Shown: positions 2,442-16,738 of the stretch, piece after piece | How positions within the stretch are numbered: the first letter of the stretch is position 1 | How the letters are laid out: every line of letters begins with the position of its first letter | DNA from: Nitrospirota bacterium | Lineage (GTDB): Bacteria > Nitrospirota > UBA9217 | Length of the DNA: 17,652 nt | Assembly (NCBI GenBank): GCA_029858565.1 | Contig: JAOUEV010000064.1 | Span: 1-17,652 of the forward strand | Direction of reading: 5' to 3' | The notes under the pieces: generated by a model | What the model saw: only the letters and a program-made list of their open reading frames with translations | Database searches by the model: none | Told to the model about the DNA's origin: nothing | Position numbers and translations under genes: made by a program

Positions 2442-3299
2442 TCAGAACCGCACTGCCATGCCCGCGAGAACGGTCCTGTCCGTCTCAGGATCAGTAATTC
2501 CGATCTTGACGCCCCCATCAACGTCAATGTGTTCTGTGATGGCATAGATGATCCCGATGAGTCCGAAAGCAGGATCACGGTCACTTGCTTTGTCAGGATT
2601 CCGCTCCTGGCCGATGTTCGCCACAACCCGGAGACCCTCGACCAGTTCGTATTCACAGGCCACGGAAACATGGTATATATCCTCCCGCTCATCAAAGCGG
2701 TTGCTGTTCCGGATGTATCCGATGTTCTGATGGAACGTCAGGGGCTTGAACTCCTCGGTCGCTATGAAGAACATTCCGAATCCGTATTTACCTGCTCCAA
2801 GCCCCTTTTCCTCGTCTCCCGTCGGCATGCTGATGCCGGGCTTGAGCGCCATGCTCAGGCCCTCTCGCTCGAAAAACCGCCACTTCAGTTCGACTGCCAC
2901 GTCCGACAGCCCTTTTTCACTTATTAAAGTGGAAGCGGGGATAGTGATATCTGTTTCCCGTCCCTCGACCTGGAGGTAGGGAATGCCGATGATTACATCA
3001 ACAGTATCCGAAGCACCGTAGGCAAGCGTGACACCCGCTTCGACAGCGCGCTCAGTGGTCTCTATTCCCTGCGATTCTTCACGGTCAGACCCGTACTCGC
3101 CGTTCACTTCAAGCTGGAACTTCCCTGTTCCCTGCGTACCCGTGTCATCGCTGATCAGGGGGTGCGCGGCCTGGGCCGGCCGGATCAACGTAAGAGTTAT
3201 CAATAGAGCCGTCAGAATAATACCGATGCTGAGTGTGTTTGCCCGGCACATGCTGCCGCCGAGACACCCGGTGAGTTTCTGTTCAGATATTTTTTCCAT
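2442..3299 (-). CDS. Outer-membrane beta-barrel 'transporter' (MetA-pathway/phenol-degradation-like family)
   Basis: Signal peptide ending AQA-AHPLISDDTGTQGTGKFQLE, amphipathic beta-strands, GLSDVAVELKWRF and LKPGISMPTGD motifs, C-terminal Phe. Start uncertain (3299 or 3251). Confidence 0.75.
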   Translation of the reverse strand: MEKISEQKLTGCLGGSMCRANTLSIGIILTALLITLTLIRPAQAAHPLISDDTGTQGTGKFQLEVNGEYGSDREESQGIETTERAVEAGVTLAYGASDTVDVIIGIPYLQVEGRETDITIPASTLISEKGLSDVAVELKWRFFEREGLSMALKPGISMPTGDEEKGLGAGKYGFGMFFIATEEFKPLTFHQNIGYIRNSNRFDEREDIYHVSVACEYELVEGLRVVANIGQERNPDKASDRDPAFGLIGIIYAITEHIDVDGGVKIGITDPETDRTVLAGMAVRF

Positions 3300-9463: not shown

Positions 9464-10399
9464 TTACCGCAGGATGCCCTTGACGATTACATCCACCGCC
9501 TCCTGCGGCGACAGACCATGGGCCATCAGCGTTTCCATCTGGCGTTTGTCCACGCTCCCGATCGCGGCCTCATGGGTGACCTTGGCGCCCGGGTTGTTCA
9601 CCTGCACAATGGGAATGGCGCGTGCGACGGCCCGGTCCTTTACGATCTCCATGCAGTCCACGTGGCCGCGCGCCCCGTCGGCATTCCCCTCGGTGATCCC
9701 GGTCACCTCGGCGCGCGCATCGTCCTCGATGGCAACGCGGGTCTTGATCATGCCCCGCGCGTTCCGGCCGTTCAGAAGCACAGCGTCCCTGATGCGCACA
9801 TCGTCCTGCCCGTGGCCAAAGACCCGTGCGTTCAGTTCGGTCACGGAGTCACGGCCGCCCGTCACCGTGTAATCGAGGCTGAGCTTTCCCACCCTGCCGG
9901 TGGTAAGGGTAAAGTCCGTGATATACCTGCCTCCGGCCCCCACGTTCACCCGGGCCACGGGGATGACTTCCACGCCGCCATGGGGACCGTGATAATGGGT
10001 CTCCGAGTACCGCATCTCCGCCCGGTCTCCGACCGAGACCTCGGCGTCCATGGCATGACGCACCTTGACCGCGTTCGGGAAGATACAGTGCGCGATGAAA
10101 GTTGCCGAGGCTCCTTCCTCGATGTTTACGCGCATCTCGATCCTCTGCGTGCCCTCGGCGTGGAGTACGCCGAAACAGAGATGGACCGGTTTCGCGAGCC
10201 TGACATCTTTCTTAACCGTCACTGCCGCGAAGATACCGTCCGCGGTTTCACGCGCGTCGACCACCAGTCCCGGCACTCCCCGCATGCTCACGATGCTGTG
10301 GCCGCTGGCTGCCAGGTGGCCGGTGGAGCTGTCGCCCAGGACAGCGGCGTCGCCGCCGGCGCAGGTATAAGCTCTGAGGAGATCTTCCTGTTCAGACAT
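9464..10399 (-). CDS. sufB: SufB/SufD-family Fe-S scaffold, short archaeal-type (SmsB-like)
   Basis: PVHLCFG, AHCIFPNA, ARGHVDCMEIV, AIPIVQV...AKVTHEAAIGSVD motifs. About 311 aa. ATG 10399 overlaps the sufC stop (ATGTCTGA). Confidence 0.92.
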   Translation of the reverse strand: MSEQEDLLRAYTCAGGDAAVLGDSSTGHLAASGHSIVSMRGVPGLVVDARETADGIFAAVTVKKDVRLAKPVHLCFGVLHAEGTQRIEMRVNIEEGASATFIAHCIFPNAVKVRHAMDAEVSVGDRAEMRYSETHYHGPHGGVEVIPVARVNVGAGGRYITDFTLTTGRVGKLSLDYTVTGGRDSVTELNARVFGHGQDDVRIRDAVLLNGRNARGMIKTRVAIEDDARAEVTGITEGNADGARGHVDCMEIVKDRAVARAIPIVQVNNPGAKVTHEAAIGSVDKRQMETLMAHGLSPQEAVDVIVKGILR

Positions 10400-11117
10400 A
10401 GTGACACTCTGTGCCATCGCACAATCCGCAATGGCGTTTCTTGTAGTGGCCGGCAACACCCTCGGGTGTTCCTGAGCAGATGATCCTGCCGTTGCAGAGC
10501 TGGGAAGCCCGGTCCGCGATCAGCGCGATCTCTTCGCGGTGAGTGATGAGCAGGACCGCGGAACCGCGTTCCTTGAACGCTGAAATGACGTTAATGATGT
10601 CCCGGGTAGAGAGCATATCGATGCCCGAATCAGGTTCATCCATGATGGCCAGCCTTGGCTTGAGCGCCAGGAGCGACGCAAGCTCGATGCGCTTGCGCTC
10701 ACCACCGCTCAGGGAGCGGTCGACCATGCGGTCGCGATAGAGAGCGGGATTCATTCCAACGAGCTCCAATGCTGAGTCAGCCGCACCCCGTTCCGTTCCG
10801 AGAGACAGGTAATCTGCCACGGTCACTCCCTCGAACCGTACCGGCTCCTGCCAGGCCATGGTGATGCCTTTCCGGGCCCGTTCGTGGATCTTGAGGCCGG
10901 CAAGCGCGGCACCGTCATACAGAAGCTCTCCTTCCGACGGTCGGTATCCTTCGCAGCCCATGATCACGTAAGCCAGGGTGCTCTTGCCGGTCCCGTTGGC
11001 GCCGAGCAACGCGTGTACTTCGCCCTGTTCGATGGCAAGGTCGAGGTGATCGAGGATGGCGGCGCATGATGCCCCGGCAGGCCTGAAAACAAGATCCCTT
11101 ATGGAGAGCAAGGACAT
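10392..11117 (-). CDS. sufC: SufC-like ABC ATPase with Cys-rich tail (SmsC-like)
   Basis: Walker A GANGTGKST, AWQEP Q-loop, LSGGERKRIE, MDEPDSGID, LITH. Tail LC...IC...HCGLCDGTEC. Translationally coupled to sufBD. Confidence 0.92.
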   Translation of the reverse strand: MSLLSIRDLVFRPAGASCAAILDHLDLAIEQGEVHALLGANGTGKSTLAYVIMGCEGYRPSEGELLYDGAALAGLKIHERARKGITMAWQEPVRFEGVTVADYLSLGTERGAADSALELVGMNPALYRDRMVDRSLSGGERKRIELASLLALKPRLAIMDEPDSGIDMLSTRDIINVISAFKERGSAVLLITHREEIALIADRASQLCNGRIICSGTPEGVAGHYKKRHCGLCDGTECHYV

Positions 11118-11247
11118 GGATTTCACCCCATCAGCAACAACGACATCGTCGAGCCTGATATATATTCTAGCTGATTTGGGGGAATTAGGGGGGAGATCAA
11201 AGATGAGGACAGATGGTCAACTGTCTCTTCAATCAAGGGAAACCGGT

Positions 11248-11361
11248 TTTCGCGCAAAGGCGCAAAGACGCCAGGAAAAGATAACAACGACCGCGTCCGG
11301 TTTACTGCAAAATCCAGAAGTATCTCTGTCTTTCATCGCGACTTGGCGGCTCGGCGCGAGA
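11248..11361. repeat. REP-like imperfect inverted repeat made of 8-nt CGCAAAGN units
   Basis: Left arm TTTCGCGCAAAGGCGCAAAGACGCCAGGAAA. Reverse complement of right arm TCTCGCGCCGAGCCGCCAAGTCGCGATGAAA. Confidence 0.65.
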
Positions 11362-11392
11362 CTGAATTACGCAGCTATTTTTCCCTCTACTC

Positions 11393-11428
11393 AAAAAAAA
11401 GCCGCTGCCCGGAAGACCGGGAGCGGCT
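11393..11428 (-). terminator. Rho-independent terminator after the HesB-like gene
   Basis: Minus strand AGCCGCT-CCCGG-TCTT-CCGGG-C-AGCGGC followed by a run of 8 T, about 25 nt after the stop at 11453. Confidence 0.85.
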
Positions 11429-11452
11429 GAAAAGAACAGAGAACAGGAGCTA

Positions 11453-11758
11453 CTAACAGCTGCAGGAACCGCCGCAGGAATTGTTCTGCTGCATGCCTGT
11501 CAGCACGAAACCCTGATTGTCGTTGAAATCGATGGTGGTGCTCATCAGCATCTGCTTCGCACGCTCTTCGAGGAACAGCTTGAGGCCGTCCTTCTCAAGG
11601 GTCGTGTCGCCCGCCTGGGCTGCTTTGGCTATGTCCATAGCCAATGAGGGGCTTCAGCCACCGGGGACAACGAAGATCCGGACCCCGTCGTCCGCGGTTC
11701 CCTGCTGGGTGACTACTTCCTTGAACTTCTTTACTGCTCCGTCGGTAAGACTTACCAT
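11453..11758 (-). CDS. HesB/IscA-like (A-type carrier fold) selenoprotein, 101 aa, Sec at codon 35
   Basis: ORF-track pieces 11654-11845 and 11453-11644 are in one frame, separated only by TGA at 11654-11656: MVSLTDGAVKKFKEVV...GVRIFVVPGG-U-SPSLAMDI...DGLKLFLE...TIDF...GFVLTG...SCGGSCSC. GAGGAGG RBS before ATG 11758. SECIS-like hairpin follows. Confidence 0.88.
11625..11644 (-). promoter_or_regulatory. Putative bacterial SECIS element
   Basis: TTGGCTAT-GGAC-ATAGCCAA: perfect 8-bp stem after a 9-nt spacer from the UGA. G-initiated loop lies 17 nt from the UGA. Confidence 0.72.
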
Positions 11759-11816
11759 TACAAACTTCCTCCTCTGCCTGGCTGCGAGAACCTTTCGGGA
11801 CTCGATGATGTAAGTG

Positions 11817-11845
11817 ATAATAACTCCGTGTTCAAATGTCTGCAA
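11817..11845 (-). promoter_or_regulatory. Putative sigma70 promoter for the HesB-like gene
   Basis: TTGCAG-N17-TATTAT on the minus strand, about 60 nt upstream of ATG 11758. Confidence 0.45.
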
Positions 11846-11906
11846 CTGTTTTTTGCTTCTTTCGCCCAGTTACGAACTCCGCAGAAGCAATGTCACACCC
11901 CTCTGC

Positions 11907-12323
11907 CTACCCCGATATATCGCGGACCAGGAACTCCATCCGGGCATGGATCTCGTCACGGGCCCTGCGAAACTCCCTGAGGATCTCTTCTTCCGTACCT
12001 GTGGCCCCGACCGGGTCCTTGATAGGCCAATGATATCTTTTTATTTCCTTCGGCGTCACGGGACAGGATTCAAGTGCGTTGGCGCAGAGCGTGACGATAA
12101 CGTCCATGGTCCGGAGCAGGTCCCAGTCGATCTCCTTGGACCGCTGGCCGGAAATGTCGATCCCGGCCTCGGCCATGACCGCTGCCGCGTGCCGGTTCAC
12201 TCCCGCGGCCATGAGACCGGCGCTATAGGGCTCGATGGCTCCCTGTCCGAGCGCCCGGGCGAACCCTTCGGCCATCTGGCTTCGGCAGGAATTTCCGGTG
12301 CAGAGGAACATGACTTTTTTCAC
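11907..12323 (-). CDS. arsC: Thioredoxin-coupled arsenate reductase (LMW-PTPase fold)
   Basis: P-loop FLCTGNSCRSQMAEG, distal C-X6-C (TLCANALESCP), HWPIKDP. GAGGAGG RBS 8 nt before GTG 12323. Confidence 0.95.
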   Translation of the reverse strand: MKKVMFLCTGNSCRSQMAEGFARALGQGAIEPYSAGLMAAGVNRHAAAVMAEAGIDISGQRSKEIDWDLLRTMDVIVTLCANALESCPVTPKEIKRYHWPIKDPVGATGTEEEILREFRRARDEIHARMEFLVRDISG

Positions 12324-12364
12324 AAGCACAGCCTCCTCAGGCGAACATGGTCAGCGATACCGGT

Positions 12365-13057
12365 CTACAGACCGATGACAGCAAAATAGGATCCCGTGGC
12401 AACAAGCACCGCTCCGCTGAACCGCTTCGCGTACAGGGAAAAGCTCCTGACACCGCGGGAGCGTACGAGTTGTTCAGTGAGCCCGACGGAAAGACCGGCC
12501 ATAAAGATCAATGCGCAATGACCGACAGCATAGACGAAGAGAAGCGATCCGCCATACAGGATATCGCCCTGCGTGGAGACATAAGCGAGGATAACAGCGA
12601 GCACCGGCGTGGCGCAGGGAGACGAGACGGTGCCGGTCAGGAGCCCAAGCAGGAACGCACCCCAGAGGCCGCGGGTCTTGATCTGATGCGTTTTCTGAAA
12701 GGGCAGAGGGATATCCACAATGCCCATGAGTTGGAGTCCCATGACTACAGCAAGGAGGGCAAGACCACCATATAACCACCGGCCGGCGAAGGACAGGAAC
12801 GCGCCCATGGCCGAAGCAGCCGCGCCAAGGACCGTAAAGGTTATGGAGAGACCTAGAATGAAGACCAGCGAATAGATCGCTGCTTTTTTCTTGTCCCCGT
12901 CCGAGTAACCGCCCACATAACCAATAATAAGAGGGATCGCGGCCAGCACACAAGGGCTGGCCGCGGACAGGAGACCACCGACGAACACGGTCAGGAACGC
13001 CAGTCCATGATTGTTTTGGATGACTGCTTGAATGTTTGCAAGCATGGCTTCCATCAT
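12365..13057 (-). CDS. ccdA: CcdA/DsbD-beta transmembrane thiol-disulfide electron transporter
   Basis: About six TM helices with the two catalytic motifs ASPCVLAAIP and SSPCATPVL. Confidence 0.92.
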   Translation of the reverse strand: MMEAMLANIQAVIQNNHGLAFLTVFVGGLLSAASPCVLAAIPLIIGYVGGYSDGDKKKAAIYSLVFILGLSITFTVLGAAASAMGAFLSFAGRWLYGGLALLAVVMGLQLMGIVDIPLPFQKTHQIKTRGLWGAFLLGLLTGTVSSPCATPVLAVILAYVSTQGDILYGGSLLFVYAVGHCALIFMAGLSVGLTEQLVRSRGVRSFSLYAKRFSGAVLVATGSYFAVIGL

Positions 13058-13061
13058 ATAC

Positions 13062-13093
13062 TCTCCGCGTCCCCGTGTCTCCCTGTCTCCGGG
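13062..13093. repeat. Four degenerate 8-nt tandem units between the thioredoxin gene and ccdA
   Basis: TCTCCGCG TCCCCGTG TCTCCCTG TCTCCGGG. Confidence 0.6.
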
Positions 13094-13100
13094 TCCGCTG

Positions 13101-13478
13101 TCATATCCCCGCCTTTTTCAGCATAGCCACGATCTCCTCATAGGGATAGAAGCCGACATGGCGGTGAAACTCTTTGCCATCCTTGTCCAGGAAGACCTGC
13201 ACCGGGATCATGTACACACCGAACCTGCGCGCCGACCGTTGGTCTTTCTTGACATCTATAAAAATGACATTAAGCTCCTTTTTGTAGGTTTCTGACAGTC
13301 TGGCCATTACCGGTTTCATTTGTTCACAGGGAATGCAGCCGATCGACCCCAGTTCAAGCATGACGACCTTCCCTTCTGCTTTCGCTCTGCTCAACGCGCT
13401 ATCGGCATCTCCGGCATTACTGCACGAAGACAGGGAAAGAAAGAGCAGAATTACCATCGACGCTATACTGATCTTCAT
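13101..13478 (-). CDS. Exported (likely lipoprotein) thioredoxin-family protein
   Basis: Signal peptide with lipobox-like LSSC, active site GCIPCEQMKP, cis-Pro IPVQVFLDKDGKE. GGAGG RBS before ATG 13478. Confidence 0.9.
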   Translation of the reverse strand: MKISIASMVILLFLSLSSCSNAGDADSALSRAKAEGKVVMLELGSIGCIPCEQMKPVMARLSETYKKELNVIFIDVKKDQRSARRFGVYMIPVQVFLDKDGKEFHRHVGFYPYEEIVAMLKKAGI

Positions 13479-13488
13479 GTTGCCTCCG

Positions 13489-14568
13489 CTAAACAGCATC
13501 GTTACCCGTGGCACCGCAGGGGGAGACGGAGAAATAGGTACGTTGAAAATATCTGGCCACATGCACCAGGCCGATCAACACCGGCACCTCCACCAGCGGC
13601 CCGATGACCGCGGCGAAGGCGGCGCCGGAGTTAATACCGAACACGGCAACGGCCACTGCTATCGCAAGCTCGAAATTATTGCTTGCCGCGGTGAATGACA
13701 AGGTCGCGGTCTTCGGGTAGTCGGCGCCGATCTTCTTTCCCATATAGAAGGACACCAGGAACATGACCACAAAATAGATCAGGAGCGGCACTGCAATGCG
13801 GAGCACGTCAAGAGGCAGCTTGACGATAAAGTTGCCCTTGAGCGAGAACATGACAACGATCGTGAACAAGAGCGAAATTAGCGTGATCGGACTGATCTTC
13901 GGGATAAAGATCGTTTCATACCATTCCCGGTTCTTCATTTTGATCAAGGCAAAGCGGGTCAGCATGCCGGCGATGAACGGGATGCCGAGATAGATGAATA
14001 CGCTCTCGGCGATCTGGCCGATTGTCACCTTGACCACGACCCCCTTGAGACCGAACCACACCGGGAGCGCTGTTATGAAGATATAGGCATACACAGAGAA
14101 GAAGAGGACCTGAAAGATCGAGTTGAACGCCACGAGACCGGCGGCATACTCAGGGTCGCCGCCGGCAAGGTCGTTCCAGACGATCACCATGGCGATGCAT
14201 CGGGCGAGGCCGATCATGATAAGACCGACCATGTATTCGGGATAGGAGCGAAGAAATATGATCGCGAGACCGAACATCAGAATGGGGCCGATGATCCAGT
14301 TCTGGATAAGAGAAAGGCCCAGGACCTTCTTATTGCGAAAAACCTCGGTGAGTTCCTCGTATTTGACCTTGGCGAGCGGTGGATACATCATGAGGATAAG
14401 GCCGACCGCGATGGGGATATTGGTCGTTCCAACCTGAAAGCTGTTGATGAACGATTCGGTCCCCGGGATAAAATACCCGAGGCCCACGCCGAGCGCCATT
14501 GCCGCAAAGATCCAAAGCGTAAGGAAACGGTCCGTAAAAGAAAGCACTTTTCCCGTTTGTTCGGCCAT
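13489..14568 (-). CDS. acr3: Acr3-family arsenite efflux transporter
   Basis: [38 protein letters not shown] (essential Cys), [19 protein letters not shown]. Confidence 0.97.
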
Positions 14569-14590
14569 CAGTCACATCCCCTCTGCAATC

Positions 14591-14965
14591 TCATCCGCAG
14601 CATCGGCTTTTGGATTTTAGCGGAACGACCTTCCGACCAAGGTCTTTCTTCCCGAGAAAAACACTTAGCCGTTTGCTATCCGCCAATGATTGATTGTCCC
14701 TGAGCCTCTCGCAGATCGACAGGATCAACATTCTCCGGAGCAGGTCCTGATCGTTCAGACTATAATGGATCCACTTCCCCTGCTTCCGGTCCTTGATCAG
14801 TCCTGCCTCTCTCAAAGCGCTGAGATGGAATGACACCTTGGGCTGCACCATGTCCAGTGCCGCTGTGATGTCGCAAACGCATAGTTCGCCCTGTTCAAGA
14901 AGCTTGATGATACGAAGCCTGGTCTCATCGGATAGTGCCTTGAATATTGTCGCAAGCTCATTCAT
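14591..14965 (-). CDS. arsR: ArsR/SmtB arsenite-responsive repressor
   Basis: FKALSDETRLRI, ELCVCD box, QPKVSFHL, RKQGKWIHYSL, plus C-terminal CC. Start 14965 or 14995. Confidence 0.95.
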   Translation of the reverse strand: MNELATIFKALSDETRLRIIKLLEQGELCVCDITAALDMVQPKVSFHLSALREAGLIKDRKQGKWIHYSLNDQDLLRRMLILSICERLRDNQSLADSKRLSVFLGKKDLGRKVVPLKSKSRCCG

Positions 14966-15004
14966 GATCGATGCGTTTCCCCCTGTCGGCTGCATGTAAC
15001 TAAA

Positions 15005-15247
15005 TTACGAAGCCGCCTTGATAAGTTCCTTTACCTTCTCCAGCGACGGAAGCGGTTTCCCGGAATGCCTGATCTTGCCATTCACGATGAGACCCGGCGT
15101 CGAAAGGATGCCGTGCATGGCGATCTGGCCGATGTCGGTGATCTTCTCGATCTTCGCCTCGATGCCGAGTTCCTGAACCGCGGTTTTCGCCAGTTCCTCC
15201 ATCTTGTGGCAATTCGCGCAACCCGGACCAAGTACCTTGATCTCCAT
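15005..15247 (-). CDS. Small thioredoxin-like redox-active disulfide protein (MTH895 type)
   Basis: MEIKVLGPGCANC...IEKITD...GILSTPGLIVNG. AGGAGG RBS fits ATG 15247. Confidence 0.92.
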   Translation of the reverse strand: MEIKVLGPGCANCHKMEELAKTAVQELGIEAKIEKITDIGQIAMHGILSTPGLIVNGKIRHSGKPLPSLEKVKELIKAAS

Positions 15248-15263
15248 ATCGTTCATCCTCCTG

Positions 15264-15713
15264 CTATTTTTTCCTGAACTTCATTTTTAGCACCGGAATT
15301 CGCGGACCTGTGTGGGGCGGCTGTACCTTGAACAGATGGGCAGCAGCGGCAATACCCGCCCTAACGATCAGTTCGGCGGGGATCGATTCATGGATATCAC
15401 CGCCGTATTCTACTGTTCTGCAATCAGTATCGCCGCAAGTTTCGCAGCATTTACTCTGGCCCGTGGTTGCACCGAGCCATTCTTCGAGTGTCTTCCCGGA
15501 GATGAGGATCTTGTTGGACTGCAATGCGTCCTTTTTGAACGTCTCGGGATCGATAGGTTTTTTGATCAGATTGACGGCTACATCAGAAGGAGCCAGCATC
15601 TGGTTGAGATCCTTGACCGCCTTTTCAACTTCCAGCTCCGTTGATCCGCAGCGGGGGCAGGTTTCTTTCCGTTCATCCAGGAGCCTTTGCCATTCGATTA
15701 CAAGCGTTTTCAT
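15264..15713 (-). CDS. DUF2703-like Cys-rich protein
   Basis: LVIEWQRL...TCPRCGST...SNKILISGKTLEEWLG...SKCCETCGDTDCRTVEY pattern. Family assigned from memory of the motif. Confidence 0.75.
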   Translation of the reverse strand: MKTLVIEWQRLLDERKETCPRCGSTELEVEKAVKDLNQMLAPSDVAVNLIKKPIDPETFKKDALQSNKILISGKTLEEWLGATTGQSKCCETCGDTDCRTVEYGGDIHESIPAELIVRAGIAAAAHLFKVQPPHTGPRIPVLKMKFRKK

Positions 15714-15726
15714 CCCTGCTTGACTC

Positions 15727-16680
15727 CTACAGAATTGCGTTAAACAGGTAGCCGACTCCGATGATCGTAACGGTCATGATCCCCACGAACGCGGCAAGAA
15801 GCTTCATTTTCAGCACCTTCCGGAGAATGATCATTTCGGGAAGCGACAGGGCCGTGACCGCCATCATGAAGGCAAGGACAGTCCCCATGCTCATGCCCTT
15901 TTCCATGAGCGCGTAGACGATCGGGATCACGCCCGCGACATTGGAATAGAGCGGAACACCCAGTGCAACAGCAATAGGCACACCGAAGTGATTCTGCGGG
16001 CCGGCATATTTGACCAGGAAATCCTCGGGCACGTATCCGTGGATGAAACCGCCGATGCCGATGGCGACAAGAACATAGGCCCAGACCTTTTTCAGTATGT
16101 CCGTGGTATTCTCTCGCGCGTACACGAGCCTGTCCTTGAAGGACTGTTTTACCGCGTCCGCAGCGGCGCCCATTGACTTGATCTGGTAAACGTACTCTTC
16201 GACCCATCTTTCGAGCTTCAGTTTGCCGATGATCAGCCCGGCAAGGATCGCCACAAGGAGACCGACGCCCATATAGATCAATGCGACCTTCCAGCCGAAA
16301 AGGCCCCACAGAAGAACCACCGCCACTTCATTGACCATCGGAGAGGATATAAGAAAGGAAAAAGTGACGCCCAGAGGCACCCCAGCCTCGATGAACCCGA
16401 TGAAAAGGGGGACCGCGGAGCAGGAGCAGAAGGGCGTGACAACGCCCAATAGCGCGGCGAGAATATTTCCAATAAACTCTTTTTTATGCGAAAGGATGCG
16501 TTTGGTTCGTTCCGGAGGGAAATAGGACCGGATGACGGAAACAGCGAAGATGATGACTGAAAGCAGCAGGAATATCTTAATTGTGTCGTAAATAAAGAAT
16601 TCAACAGCGCCGGACAACCGCGCACCCTGCGTCATGCCGAGCAGATCGTAGACCAGGTACTGAGCGAATTTCCCGAACAT
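15727..16680 (-). CDS. arsP: ArsP/DUF318-family permease
   Basis: TPFCSCSAVP, FSFLISSPMVNE, GVPLYSN, AFMMAVTALSLPE, multiple TM helices. GAGGTG RBS before ATG 16680. Confidence 0.9.
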   Translation of the reverse strand: MFGKFAQYLVYDLLGMTQGARLSGAVEFFIYDTIKIFLLLSVIIFAVSVIRSYFPPERTKRILSHKKEFIGNILAALLGVVTPFCSCSAVPLFIGFIEAGVPLGVTFSFLISSPMVNEVAVVLLWGLFGWKVALIYMGVGLLVAILAGLIIGKLKLERWVEEYVYQIKSMGAAADAVKQSFKDRLVYARENTTDILKKVWAYVLVAIGIGGFIHGYVPEDFLVKYAGPQNHFGVPIAVALGVPLYSNVAGVIPIVYALMEKGMSMGTVLAFMMAVTALSLPEMIILRKVLKMKLLAAFVGIMTVTIIGVGYLFNAIL

Positions 16681-16693
16681 TCCCGCACCTCGC

Positions 16694-16738
16694 ATAAATT
16701 ATTCTTTATATATTATACGGAGTATGCGGTTTTGTCAA
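16694..16738 (-). promoter_or_regulatory. Sigma70 promoter of the ars operon with candidate ArsR operator
   Basis: TTGACA (16738-16733), N17, TAATAT (an overlapping TATAAT lies at N15), directly followed by the palindrome ATAAA-gaataa-TTTAT (16709-16694). Confidence 0.7.

Follow-up and report, generated by a model that had tools for sequence, protein, structure and literature searches.

The stretch of DNA analysed here, 17,652 nucleotides (nt) of contig JAOUEV010000064.1 from a Nitrospirota bacterium and referred to throughout as the window, carries on its minus strand a gene of the IscA/HesB family whose reading frame is interrupted by one TGA. The gene runs from an ATG at 11758 to a stop at 11453 and comprises 101 codons when TGA is read as selenocysteine (Sec, U; translation 11758..11456). 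The predicted protein, MVSLTDGAV...VPGG-U35-SPSLAMDIAK...NNS-C95-GGS-C99-S-C101, has the Sec at residue 35, and this TGA is the only one in the entire frame. A first-pass annotation of the same DNA had described a single frame with a strong ribosome-binding site, one in-frame TGA in GG-[TGA]-SPSL, an 8-bp perfect hairpin with its loop starting 17 nt past the TGA, and a CGGSCSC tail. All of these elements were found in the sequence, the tail as C95-GGS-C99-S-C101; the strand, which had been left unstated, is the minus strand. Judged by the sequence comparisons described below, the locus is almost certainly a real selenoprotein gene that is routinely mis-called. Its coding and decoding features are:

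11453..11758, minus strand: predicted coding sequence of the IscA/HesB-family selenoprotein (translation; PF01521 match; AF2 fold; synonymous variation in codons 2-34)
11768..11773, minus strand: Shine-Dalgarno sequence AGGAGG, 9 nt 5' of the ATG (sequence and orthologs)
11654..11656, minus strand: UGA, the predicted Sec codon (codon 35), within GG-U-SPSL (conservation; aligned with the Cys of A-type carriers)
11625..11644, minus strand: hairpin of the Sec insertion sequence (SECIS) type, 8-bp perfect stem TTGGCTAT (11644-11637) / ATAGCCAA (11632-11625), loop GGAC (11636-11633) (fold, conservation)
11455-11450, minus strand: tandem stop TAG TAG, the second TAG at 11452-11450 (sequence)

The UGA codon is conserved across the genome and metagenome loci examined. 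When 401 genomes of the same phylum were searched in six frames, 368 gave matches, and an in-frame TGA is present in every one of the 68 best-scoring rows (two in one row; one row also with a TAG); 7 lower-scoring rows also have the TGA, and most of the weaker rows (~34-46% identity) are without it. Within the window's own family (f1), 55 of the 63 other genomes match at E <= 1e-30; the remaining 8 gave weak matches only, and several of these genomes are incomplete. TGA is codon 35 in 30/30 close loci (the window included), each of which starts with ATG, and codon 34-36 in 20/20 more distant loci, where it lies within GG-U-[SGR]PSL, GG-U-STSYG or GG-U-GCGPSYG. It is thus present in all 50 genome loci examined. 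Metagenome contigs were scanned with an exact pattern that left the third base of codon 35 free and required the hairpin. This recovered at least 119 stretches, 119/119 of which read TGA, with no TGG, TGC or TGT among the matches listed; of the 118 listed stretches that extend far enough upstream, 117 show a start codon 34 codons before the TGA, with the frame open from there. Recurrence of the TGA in all genome and metagenome loci therefore excludes, for those sequences, both a Trp codon and a sequencing error, the latter having been named in the first-pass annotation as a way in which its proposal could fail.

The region 5' of the TGA behaves as coding sequence. Across the 30 orthologs the amino acids of codons 2-34 are kept with 2-5 synonymous codons at each (R27, identical in 30/30, uses five codons and V31, likewise identical in 30/30, uses four), which indicates that this part is translated in the same frame; synonymous variation is seen both upstream and downstream of the UGA. 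An AAGGAGG-type site precedes the same ATG in 28 of the 30 orthologs (GAGGAGG in the window and AAGGAGGC in L030), and the internal ATG at codon 41 that gene callers use is without a Shine-Dalgarno-type site. Contigs from four RNA libraries, representing relatives that are 82-97% identical, bridge the UGA. One of them spans 11562-11797 with 6 differences in 236 nt, and none of the 40 differences listed, out of 72 for the RNA-library contigs, falls between 11574 and 11659. As a separate observation, eleven orthologs (L010, L011, L013, L015, L016, L018, L020, L021, L024, L032 and L038) use TGA twice, as the apparent Sec codon 35 and as the true stop after the last Cys; orthologs with both uses imply context-dependent decoding within one gene.

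The hairpin starts 9 nt past the UGA, which lies within the distance range of SECIS elements. According to the legend to Figure 4 of PMC1794560, a G is conserved in the apical loop of bacterial SECIS elements; the window's hairpin is a stem-loop directly 3' of the UGA with G in its apical loop. What raises it above chance is its conservation among relatives and not the fold of the single sequence. Codons 40-45, over the hairpin, and codon 36 just past the UGA are frozen in the 30 orthologs: codon 36 is always AGC and codon 41 always ATG, codons 40 (GCT), 42 (GAC), 44 (GCC) and 45 (AAA) are the same in 30/30, and codon 43 is ATA in 26/26. At codons 37, 38 and 46, beside the frozen stretch, four codons are used at each. 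In a 49-sequence alignment, standard pairs make up 88.1% of the cells; shifting the 3' arm by 1-3 columns lowers this to 18.6-44.8%. Two-sided changes occupy 8 cells at 3 pairs, a count reached by 0/500 shuffles. They comprise a G-C to A-U change at pair 19:32 in 3 sequences, with two amino-acid replacements (A to T, A to V) as a consequence, and a U-A to C-G change at each of pairs 16:35 and 21:30, one of these being seen in 2 sequences and the other in 3. L058 has another stem sequence (TTCCTAT/ATAGGAA) at the same position. These alignments show selection acting on the hairpin as an RNA structure. The argument owes more to the frozen synonymous sites than to the covariation, which is genuine though sparse. 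The SECIS signature is unusually clean: the element lies over the conserved peptide L-A-M-D-I-A-K, and the synonymous sites there are completely frozen, making it a tidy natural case of dual coding. Nothing in it alters the known picture of Sec decoding.

The source genome, 100% complete by marker genes, contains the full Sec machinery. Adjacent selA (604.1 bits) and selB (389.4 bits) genes lie on contig C101, both above their curated cut-offs. Two selD genes score 369.7 and 354.1 bits, also above cut-offs, and each has one in-frame TGA, which we take to be the usual Sec site of SelD. A single tRNA-SeC (anticodon tca) is encoded on contig C73. All four genes that the first-pass annotation had proposed to look for (selA, selB, selC and selD) are therefore present. 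The full-length selD genes, at G000:C3:2376-3290 (+) and G000:C14:90529-91446 (+), lie outside the window and look like two Sec-type selenophosphate synthetases. Inspection of frames of >=90 codons with 1-2 internal TGA gave no convincing second selenoprotein in the window; an ArsR-like and a MoCF-like frame were considered as read-through candidates and rejected, as both just terminate at TGA.

The joined product matches Pfam family PF01521 (Fe-S_biosyn) over residues 2-92 with 39.9 bits, against a gathering cut-off of 26.3. HMMER aligned residue 35 with the invariant Cys in the GGC(S/A)G motif of HI1723, AQ_1857, SufA and E. coli IscA, where it is Cys35, bearing out the correspondence proposed in the first-pass annotation. 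In an alignment of 32 Sec forms and 15 Cys forms (A2), residue 35 and D51 are the only invariant columns. The close homologs have Sec at this column and the more distant full-length ones Cys (the 15 Cys forms of A2); none of the homologs that lack the TGA has Trp. All three conditions that the first-pass annotation had named as refuting its proposal (no Sec machinery, a non-Cys residue in homologs, a sequencing error) were decided in favour of the proposal. The first-pass annotation had also paired U35 with C99 and C101 by analogy with E. coli IscA. The numbering holds, and the choice of homologous ligand pair probably does not: HMMER placed the query's C95-G-G on C99-G-C101 of E. coli IscA, C95 and C101 are each >=90% conserved in A2, and C99 is specific to the window's clade. 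C95 and C101 make the better pair, C99 being additional to it. The Sec thus occupies the first ligand column, and the C-terminal cysteines are spaced C-x5-C plus C99 instead of C-G-C.

An AF2 (AlphaFold2) model built from A2 has a mean predicted local distance difference test score (pLDDT) of 83.5 and a predicted template modelling score (pTM) of 0.72. Its tail, residues 92-101, is disordered. The top 8 Foldseek matches in the Protein Data Bank (PDB) are IscA, SufA, AQ_1857 and HI1723 structures with template modelling (TM) scores of 0.62-0.75, including [2Fe-2S]-bound IscA. Neither half alone is a complete PF01521 domain, and the joined product alone folds as IscA. The model thus predicts a protein with the IscA/HesB (A-type carrier) fold. 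A Cys-type HesB paralog is encoded in the same genome, on contig C74.

Public databases hold this gene largely in pieces. A standard listing of open reading frames (ORFs) splits the locus into a 63-codon C-terminal ORF (11453..11644) and an upstream piece. Among the best 120 database homologs, 118 are C-terminal fragments of 59-63 amino acids (aa) starting at Met41, with names that include 'Fe-S cluster assembly iron-binding protein IscA' and 'hypothetical protein' (Nitrospirota metagenome-assembled genomes, MAGs), and 7 of 150 listed representatives are N-terminal pieces ending at residue 34. The expectation that standard gene callers would split the gene is borne out by both kinds of piece. 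The close relatives in genome collections are all from uncultured Nitrospirota MAGs, one of them labelled Betaproteobacteria, possibly through a binning error; the search for related loci used a single protein and reaches close relatives only. A tblastn search against plasmids returned 58 records, all below 60% identity and mostly HesB or iron-sulfur accessory genes of rhizobial plasmids, with no ars-linked or Sec-type relative among the best 25 of the 58 matches.

Selenoproteins of this general kind are known. PMC1794560 counts HesB-like proteins among its 25 selenoprotein families of bacteria and gives them 11 members, found in deltaproteobacteria, clostridia and Symbiobacterium. This confirms the recognised status that the first-pass annotation had ascribed to the family; the description of the gene as 'hidden' consequently fits its annotation and not its biology. 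Two reviews list the family under TIGR01911 (PMC9312934, PMC13188914). Its member in Methanococcus maripaludis is reported to have been found through mutagenesis together with 75Se labelling, its function being given as 'not clear' (PMC11097638). The window protein resembles this family in its length of ~100 residues, its IscA/HesB fold, Sec in place of the N-terminal ligand Cys, a Cys/Ser/Gly-rich C-terminal tail, the existence of Cys homologs, and hosts that are anaerobes with the Sec trait. It differs in motif, having U-S-P-S (relatives have U-G-P-S, U-R-P-S, U-S-T-S or U-G-C-G-P) where Table 1 of PMC13188914 gives UxGP, and in host, uncultured Nitrospirota not being among those named in the accessible tables of PMC1794560. 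The NCBI model NF038090 (IscA_HesB_Se), whose name presumably refers to a selenium-containing IscA/HesB clade, matches the protein end to end (profile positions 1-101 of 101). Among the A-type carriers proper, E. coli IscA (1S98/1R94), SufA (2D2A) and the [2Fe-2S] IscA of T. elongatus (1X0G) share the fold at TM 0.71-0.75, and Cys35 of IscA corresponds to position 35. The window protein differs from them in having Sec for this Cys and C-GGS-C-S-C for the C-terminal C-G-C, and it misses the equivalog cut-offs widely: SufA (TIGR01997) 50.5 versus 136.2 bits, IscA 28.1 versus 150.6 and ErpA 43.1 versus 117.

The gene and its relatives form a new, systematically mis-annotated clade of an already known selenoprotein kind. 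The curated models TIGR01911 and NF038090 fail to catch it, and the public protein sets searched contain it almost only as fragments of 59-63 or 34 residues or with W written for the Sec; a profile built for this clade, used along with the invariant hairpin sequence, would retrieve hundreds of genes. Outside subscription journals and PDF supplements, we found no published description of HesB-like proteins with Sec from Nitrospirota or from ars clusters. A second group of apparent Sec A-type carriers occurs in the same phylum (L052, L053, L057 and L058, from genomes G208, G361, G157 and G184). Its members have GG-U-STSYGLD or GG-U-GCGPSYG, two of them pass TIGR00049, and they adjoin hemB (ALAD) and not ars or suf genes; their post-UGA hairpin is different and shorter.

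A number of observations count against a selenoprotein at this locus. The hairpin does not exceed chance on its own (66-nt fold, z = -0.97; 26/200 shuffles fold equally well or better), and an Rfam scan of the whole window at the gathering score gave 0 matches. The stem is near-invariant in the 30 close orthologs, so that the few compensatory changes come from distant sequences only, and in 4 of the 49 aligned sequences, which belong to a subgroup of their own, the hairpin is shorter and differs in register. The metagenome pattern demanded the hairpin and is blind to Cys variants without it, and the RNA-library contigs derive from relatives, may contain DNA and cannot show transcript ends. The curated profiles for selenoprotein subfamilies fall short of their cut-offs. 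TIGR01911 (curated cut-off 66.35 bits) gave the window protein no match at E <= 0.01; its sole match in the whole genome is the Cys-type paralog on C74 (39.5 bits), and it scored relatives L048, L052 and L058 at 31.6-34.8 bits. NF038090, whose cut-off is 85, scored the protein at 44.2 bits (37.4 when searched in six frames). Seven other Sec forms of the phylum, two of which pass the general TIGR00049 model, likewise stay below both curated models, and 2 Cys-form homologs and the Cys-type paralog also miss the NF038090 cut-off. TIGR00049, the general NCBIfam model, was narrowly missed by the window protein (55.6 versus 58.8 bits). In two full-length database entries, P0003 and P0005, residue 35 is given as W; their contigs measure 674 and 522 bp, and we infer that they are gene calls made under a TGA=Trp table (table 4). 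The case as a whole stands at the level of sequence comparison.

Two other ways of reading the TGA have to be set against these points. It could be a true stop that leaves two small products of 34 and 61 residues, or marks a decaying pseudogene, with the hairpin incidental. The pieces in public gene calls and the non-significant single-sequence fold speak for such a stop, yet we consider this highly improbable. The TGA, its flanking frame and the start codon are kept in 50 genome loci and in 117 of 118 listed metagenome loci, unlike in a pseudogene; codon 41 is without a ribosome-binding site and codon 1 has a conserved one; the halves are incomplete as domains where the whole folds as IscA; the stop would fall exactly on an invariant Cys column; synonymous sites are frozen only over the hairpin; and the genome encodes the full Sec machinery. 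The UGA could also specify Trp or Cys, whether because the code has changed across the genome or because of near-cognate read-through independent of a SECIS, and the W in the two database homologs would agree with this. Such a reading is just as hard to credit. Many orthologs end the same gene with TGA 60-odd codons later, so TGA is not generally a sense codon, and selD has its own single in-frame TGA. The at least 119 hairpin-bearing environmental sequences include no TGG, TGC or TGT among those listed, the homologs without TGA have Cys and never Trp, and a conserved hairpin lies at SECIS distance.

The gene looks like a transcription unit of its own. Its predicted signals are:

11840..11845, minus strand: -35-like hexamer TTGCAG with an A-rich tract before it (AAAAAACAG) (30-ortholog alignment)
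11817..11822, minus strand: -10-like hexamer TATTAT, 17 nt past the -35-like hexamer (TAnnAT conserved in the 30-sequence alignment)
11393..11427, minus strand: intrinsic terminator, bulged GC-rich stem 11427-11401 followed by T8 11400-11393 (RNAfold -21.7 kcal/mol)

The arrangement AAAAAACAGTTGC(G/A)... followed by a 17-nt spacer and TAnnAT, ~60-75 nt 5' of the ATG, is common to 30/30 orthologs. An equivalent GC-rich hairpin with a T-run lies ~45-85 nt past the stop in 28/30, and a comparable terminator structure occurs upstream of the gene in 1/30 only. In the window the predicted transcription start is at about 11810. Because both its own promoter and its own terminator are conserved, the gene looks monocistronic, a predicted sigma-70-type promoter and a strong terminator apparently setting it apart as a unit. 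A consensus promoter/terminator scanner run over 11000-12000 returned 0 promoters and missed the bulged terminator; it overlooked the promoter because the window's -35-like hexamer agrees with TTGACA at only 3/6 positions, and the terminator because its stem is bulged. A regulon search found the promoter motif nowhere else in the window or the genome besides the gene's own copy. The -35/-10 spacer often holds a short inverted repeat, such as CGAATATTCG in L017 and L018, that could be an operator; compared with L010-L038, the repeat is degenerate in the window (11823-11839, minus strand).

The gene lies between an ars-type cluster and a pair of SUF-like genes:

11907-16695, minus strand: ars-type cluster, upstream, start ~16695 (profile searches)
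11907..12329, minus strand: thioredoxin (Trx)-type arsenate reductase ArsC, last gene of the ars-type cluster (PF01451; TIGR02691 164 bits versus cut-off 174.3)
10392..11126, minus strand: SufC-like ABC ATPase, downstream past the terminator (TIGR01978 166.5 bits versus cut-off 212.8)
9464..10459, minus strand: SufB/SufD-like SUFBD_core protein (PF01458 75.4 bits), start uncertain, overlapping the SufC-like ORF by 68 nt

The ars-type cluster encodes an ArsP_1/SaoE-like permease, DUF2703, Thioredoxin_3, ArsR, ACR3 (459 bits, above cut-off), a thioredoxin-like protein, a DsbD_TM protein (weakly TsoB-like) and the Trx-type ArsC. At its front are a TTGACA (16738-16733) and a TATAAT (16717-16712) at 15-nt spacing, with a TAATAT at 17-nt spacing. 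The SUFBD_core protein has at most 331 aa and scores far below the curated cut-offs of SmsB, SufB and SufD; it is the sole SufB-family match in the genome, and the SufC-like ATPase is the genome's best SufC match. The pair may represent a divergent minimal SufBC-type system. In its position ahead of SufC- and SufB-like genes the Sec gene resembles sufA, which leads the operon sufABCDSE, and it differs from sufA in having a terminator between itself and the SufC-like gene; the resemblance is one of context alone.

Neighbours were counted by tblastn; because the orthologs are kin, one locus in these tallies is not independent of the next. Of the 29 other close loci, 18 have an ArsC homolog as the immediate upstream neighbour in the same orientation, and any of ArsC, ACR3, ArsD and ArsA occurs in the flanks of 21/29 close and 7/20 distant loci. 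A SufC homolog (>=60% identity) lies downstream in 14/29 other close loci, and SUF-like genes are found in the flanks of 18/29 close loci, or 22/32 with wider flanks (the genome sets overlap). The listed metagenome loci agree: of the 60 with >=500 nt of upstream DNA, 36 have ArsC there, and of the 46 with >=600 nt on the downstream side, 27 have a SufC-like gene there. The Sec gene of L045 and L048 has arsD on one side and arsA on the other. As a control, ars or SUF-like genes were found in 0/21 loci around Cys-type IscA/HesB paralogs of the same phylum. The ars linkage of the Sec gene is recurrent and specific, and its linkage to SUF-like genes is specific too. L048 (G040:C28, ~2504-3141 in locus coordinates) also has a Cys-type HesB paralog directly upstream of the Sec-type gene, both between arsD and arsA, a natural Cys/Sec pair in one operon.

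In the mechanism that we propose, the gene would be transcribed as its own unit from the conserved sigma-70-type promoter to the strong intrinsic terminator, and ribosomes would start at ATG 11758 behind the strong Shine-Dalgarno sequence. SelB carrying Sec-tRNA(Sec) would be recruited by the hairpin 9 nt past UGA35, and Sec would be inserted without termination; we infer this SelB-dependent step from the established bacterial Sec pathway. Sec35 would then occupy the first cluster-ligand position of IscA, SufA and ErpA, on the loop between strands 1 and 2, and the flexible tail with C95, C99 and C101 would give the other ligands. Taken as a whole, a genuine 101-residue IscA/HesB-family selenoprotein, made in this manner, is very likely the best explanation of the locus. 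As its likeliest function, by analogy with SufA, the protein would bind iron or an iron-sulfur (Fe-S) cluster and pass it on to serve the adjacent SufC/SufB-like pair, a tentative assignment to which we give slightly less than an even chance, and the Sec-ligated Fe-S carrier or redox protein of the first-pass annotation likewise stays a putative role; the recurrent ars adjacency suggests that it is probably used under thiol-reactive metalloid stress. Against an Fe-S role stand the terminator that separates the Sec gene from the SufC-like gene, an ars linkage at least as frequent as the SUF linkage, and an IscU/NifU_N scaffold gene elsewhere in the same genome.

The same selenoprotein could instead handle arsenic. 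Its Se/S/S site, formed by Sec35 and two tail cysteines, would capture the trivalent arsenic, As(III), made by ArsC, and, in the manner of the metallochaperone ArsD, would sequester it or hand it to efflux through ACR3 or ArsA. A site with three soft ligands is suited to As(III). The ArsC gene directly upstream in close and metagenome loci, the ars genes in the flanks of close and some distant loci, the position between arsD and arsA in L045 and L048, the 0/21 control and the lack of a strong terminator between the upstream gene and the Sec gene in 29/30 loci all speak for this possibility. So does the occurrence of Cys-type hesB genes within ars operons, namely the hesB-like orf7 of arsRYCDAT-orf7-orf8 in Bacillus sp. 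CDB3 (PMC4562236) and hesB in the arsR-arsD-arsA-hesB-arsB cluster of Exiguobacterium (PMC8779447). These Firmicutes genes resemble the window's in being HesB-family genes among ars genes, near arsD/arsA as in L045 and L048; they differ in being described, in the accessible text, without mention of Sec, and the comparison is by description and not by sequence. ArsD (PF06953) itself offers a likeness for the arsenic alternative only, being small, having three soft ligands and being encoded beside arsA. Its fold and family, however, are unrelated, and because L045 and L048 have arsD itself next to their Sec gene, the Sec protein would not be a simple replacement for it. The Sec gene's conserved promoter is unlike the window's ars promoter, which leaves co-regulation with ars conjectural; linkage to SUF-like genes is about equally frequent; the fold and ligand set are those of Fe-S carriers; and the cited HesB-like literature, in its accessible parts, gives no As-binding data for any member. 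We regard arsenic capture as unlikely, though a serious rival, and rank it well behind Fe-S carriage; the remaining chance goes to functions other than these two.

A broader proposal embraces both chemistries. The Nitrospirota Sec HesB-like clade could be a dedicated partner of arsenic resistance, acting either by As(III) capture or by protected Fe-S delivery, which we think doubtful and rate marginally lower still. In its capture form this would amount to a second, selenium-based arsenic chaperone beside ArsD/ArsA or ACR3. In its protection form, Fe-S delivery to the cell's only SufBC-like scaffold would continue while arsenite attacks Cys-ligated carriers. In either form, Sec would have been selected for metalloid chemistry and not for redox catalysis. 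The clade offers two testable handles on the function of HesB-like selenoproteins, the SufC/SufB-like adjacency and the specific ars linkage.

Sampled words of the window have small shares only in sequencing runs other than the likely source run. Upstream of the Sec gene in L019 (G215:C24), the large subunit of a NiFeSe_Hases-family hydrogenase is present as two adjacent ORFs of 149 and 250 aa, and may be another Sec-interrupted gene.

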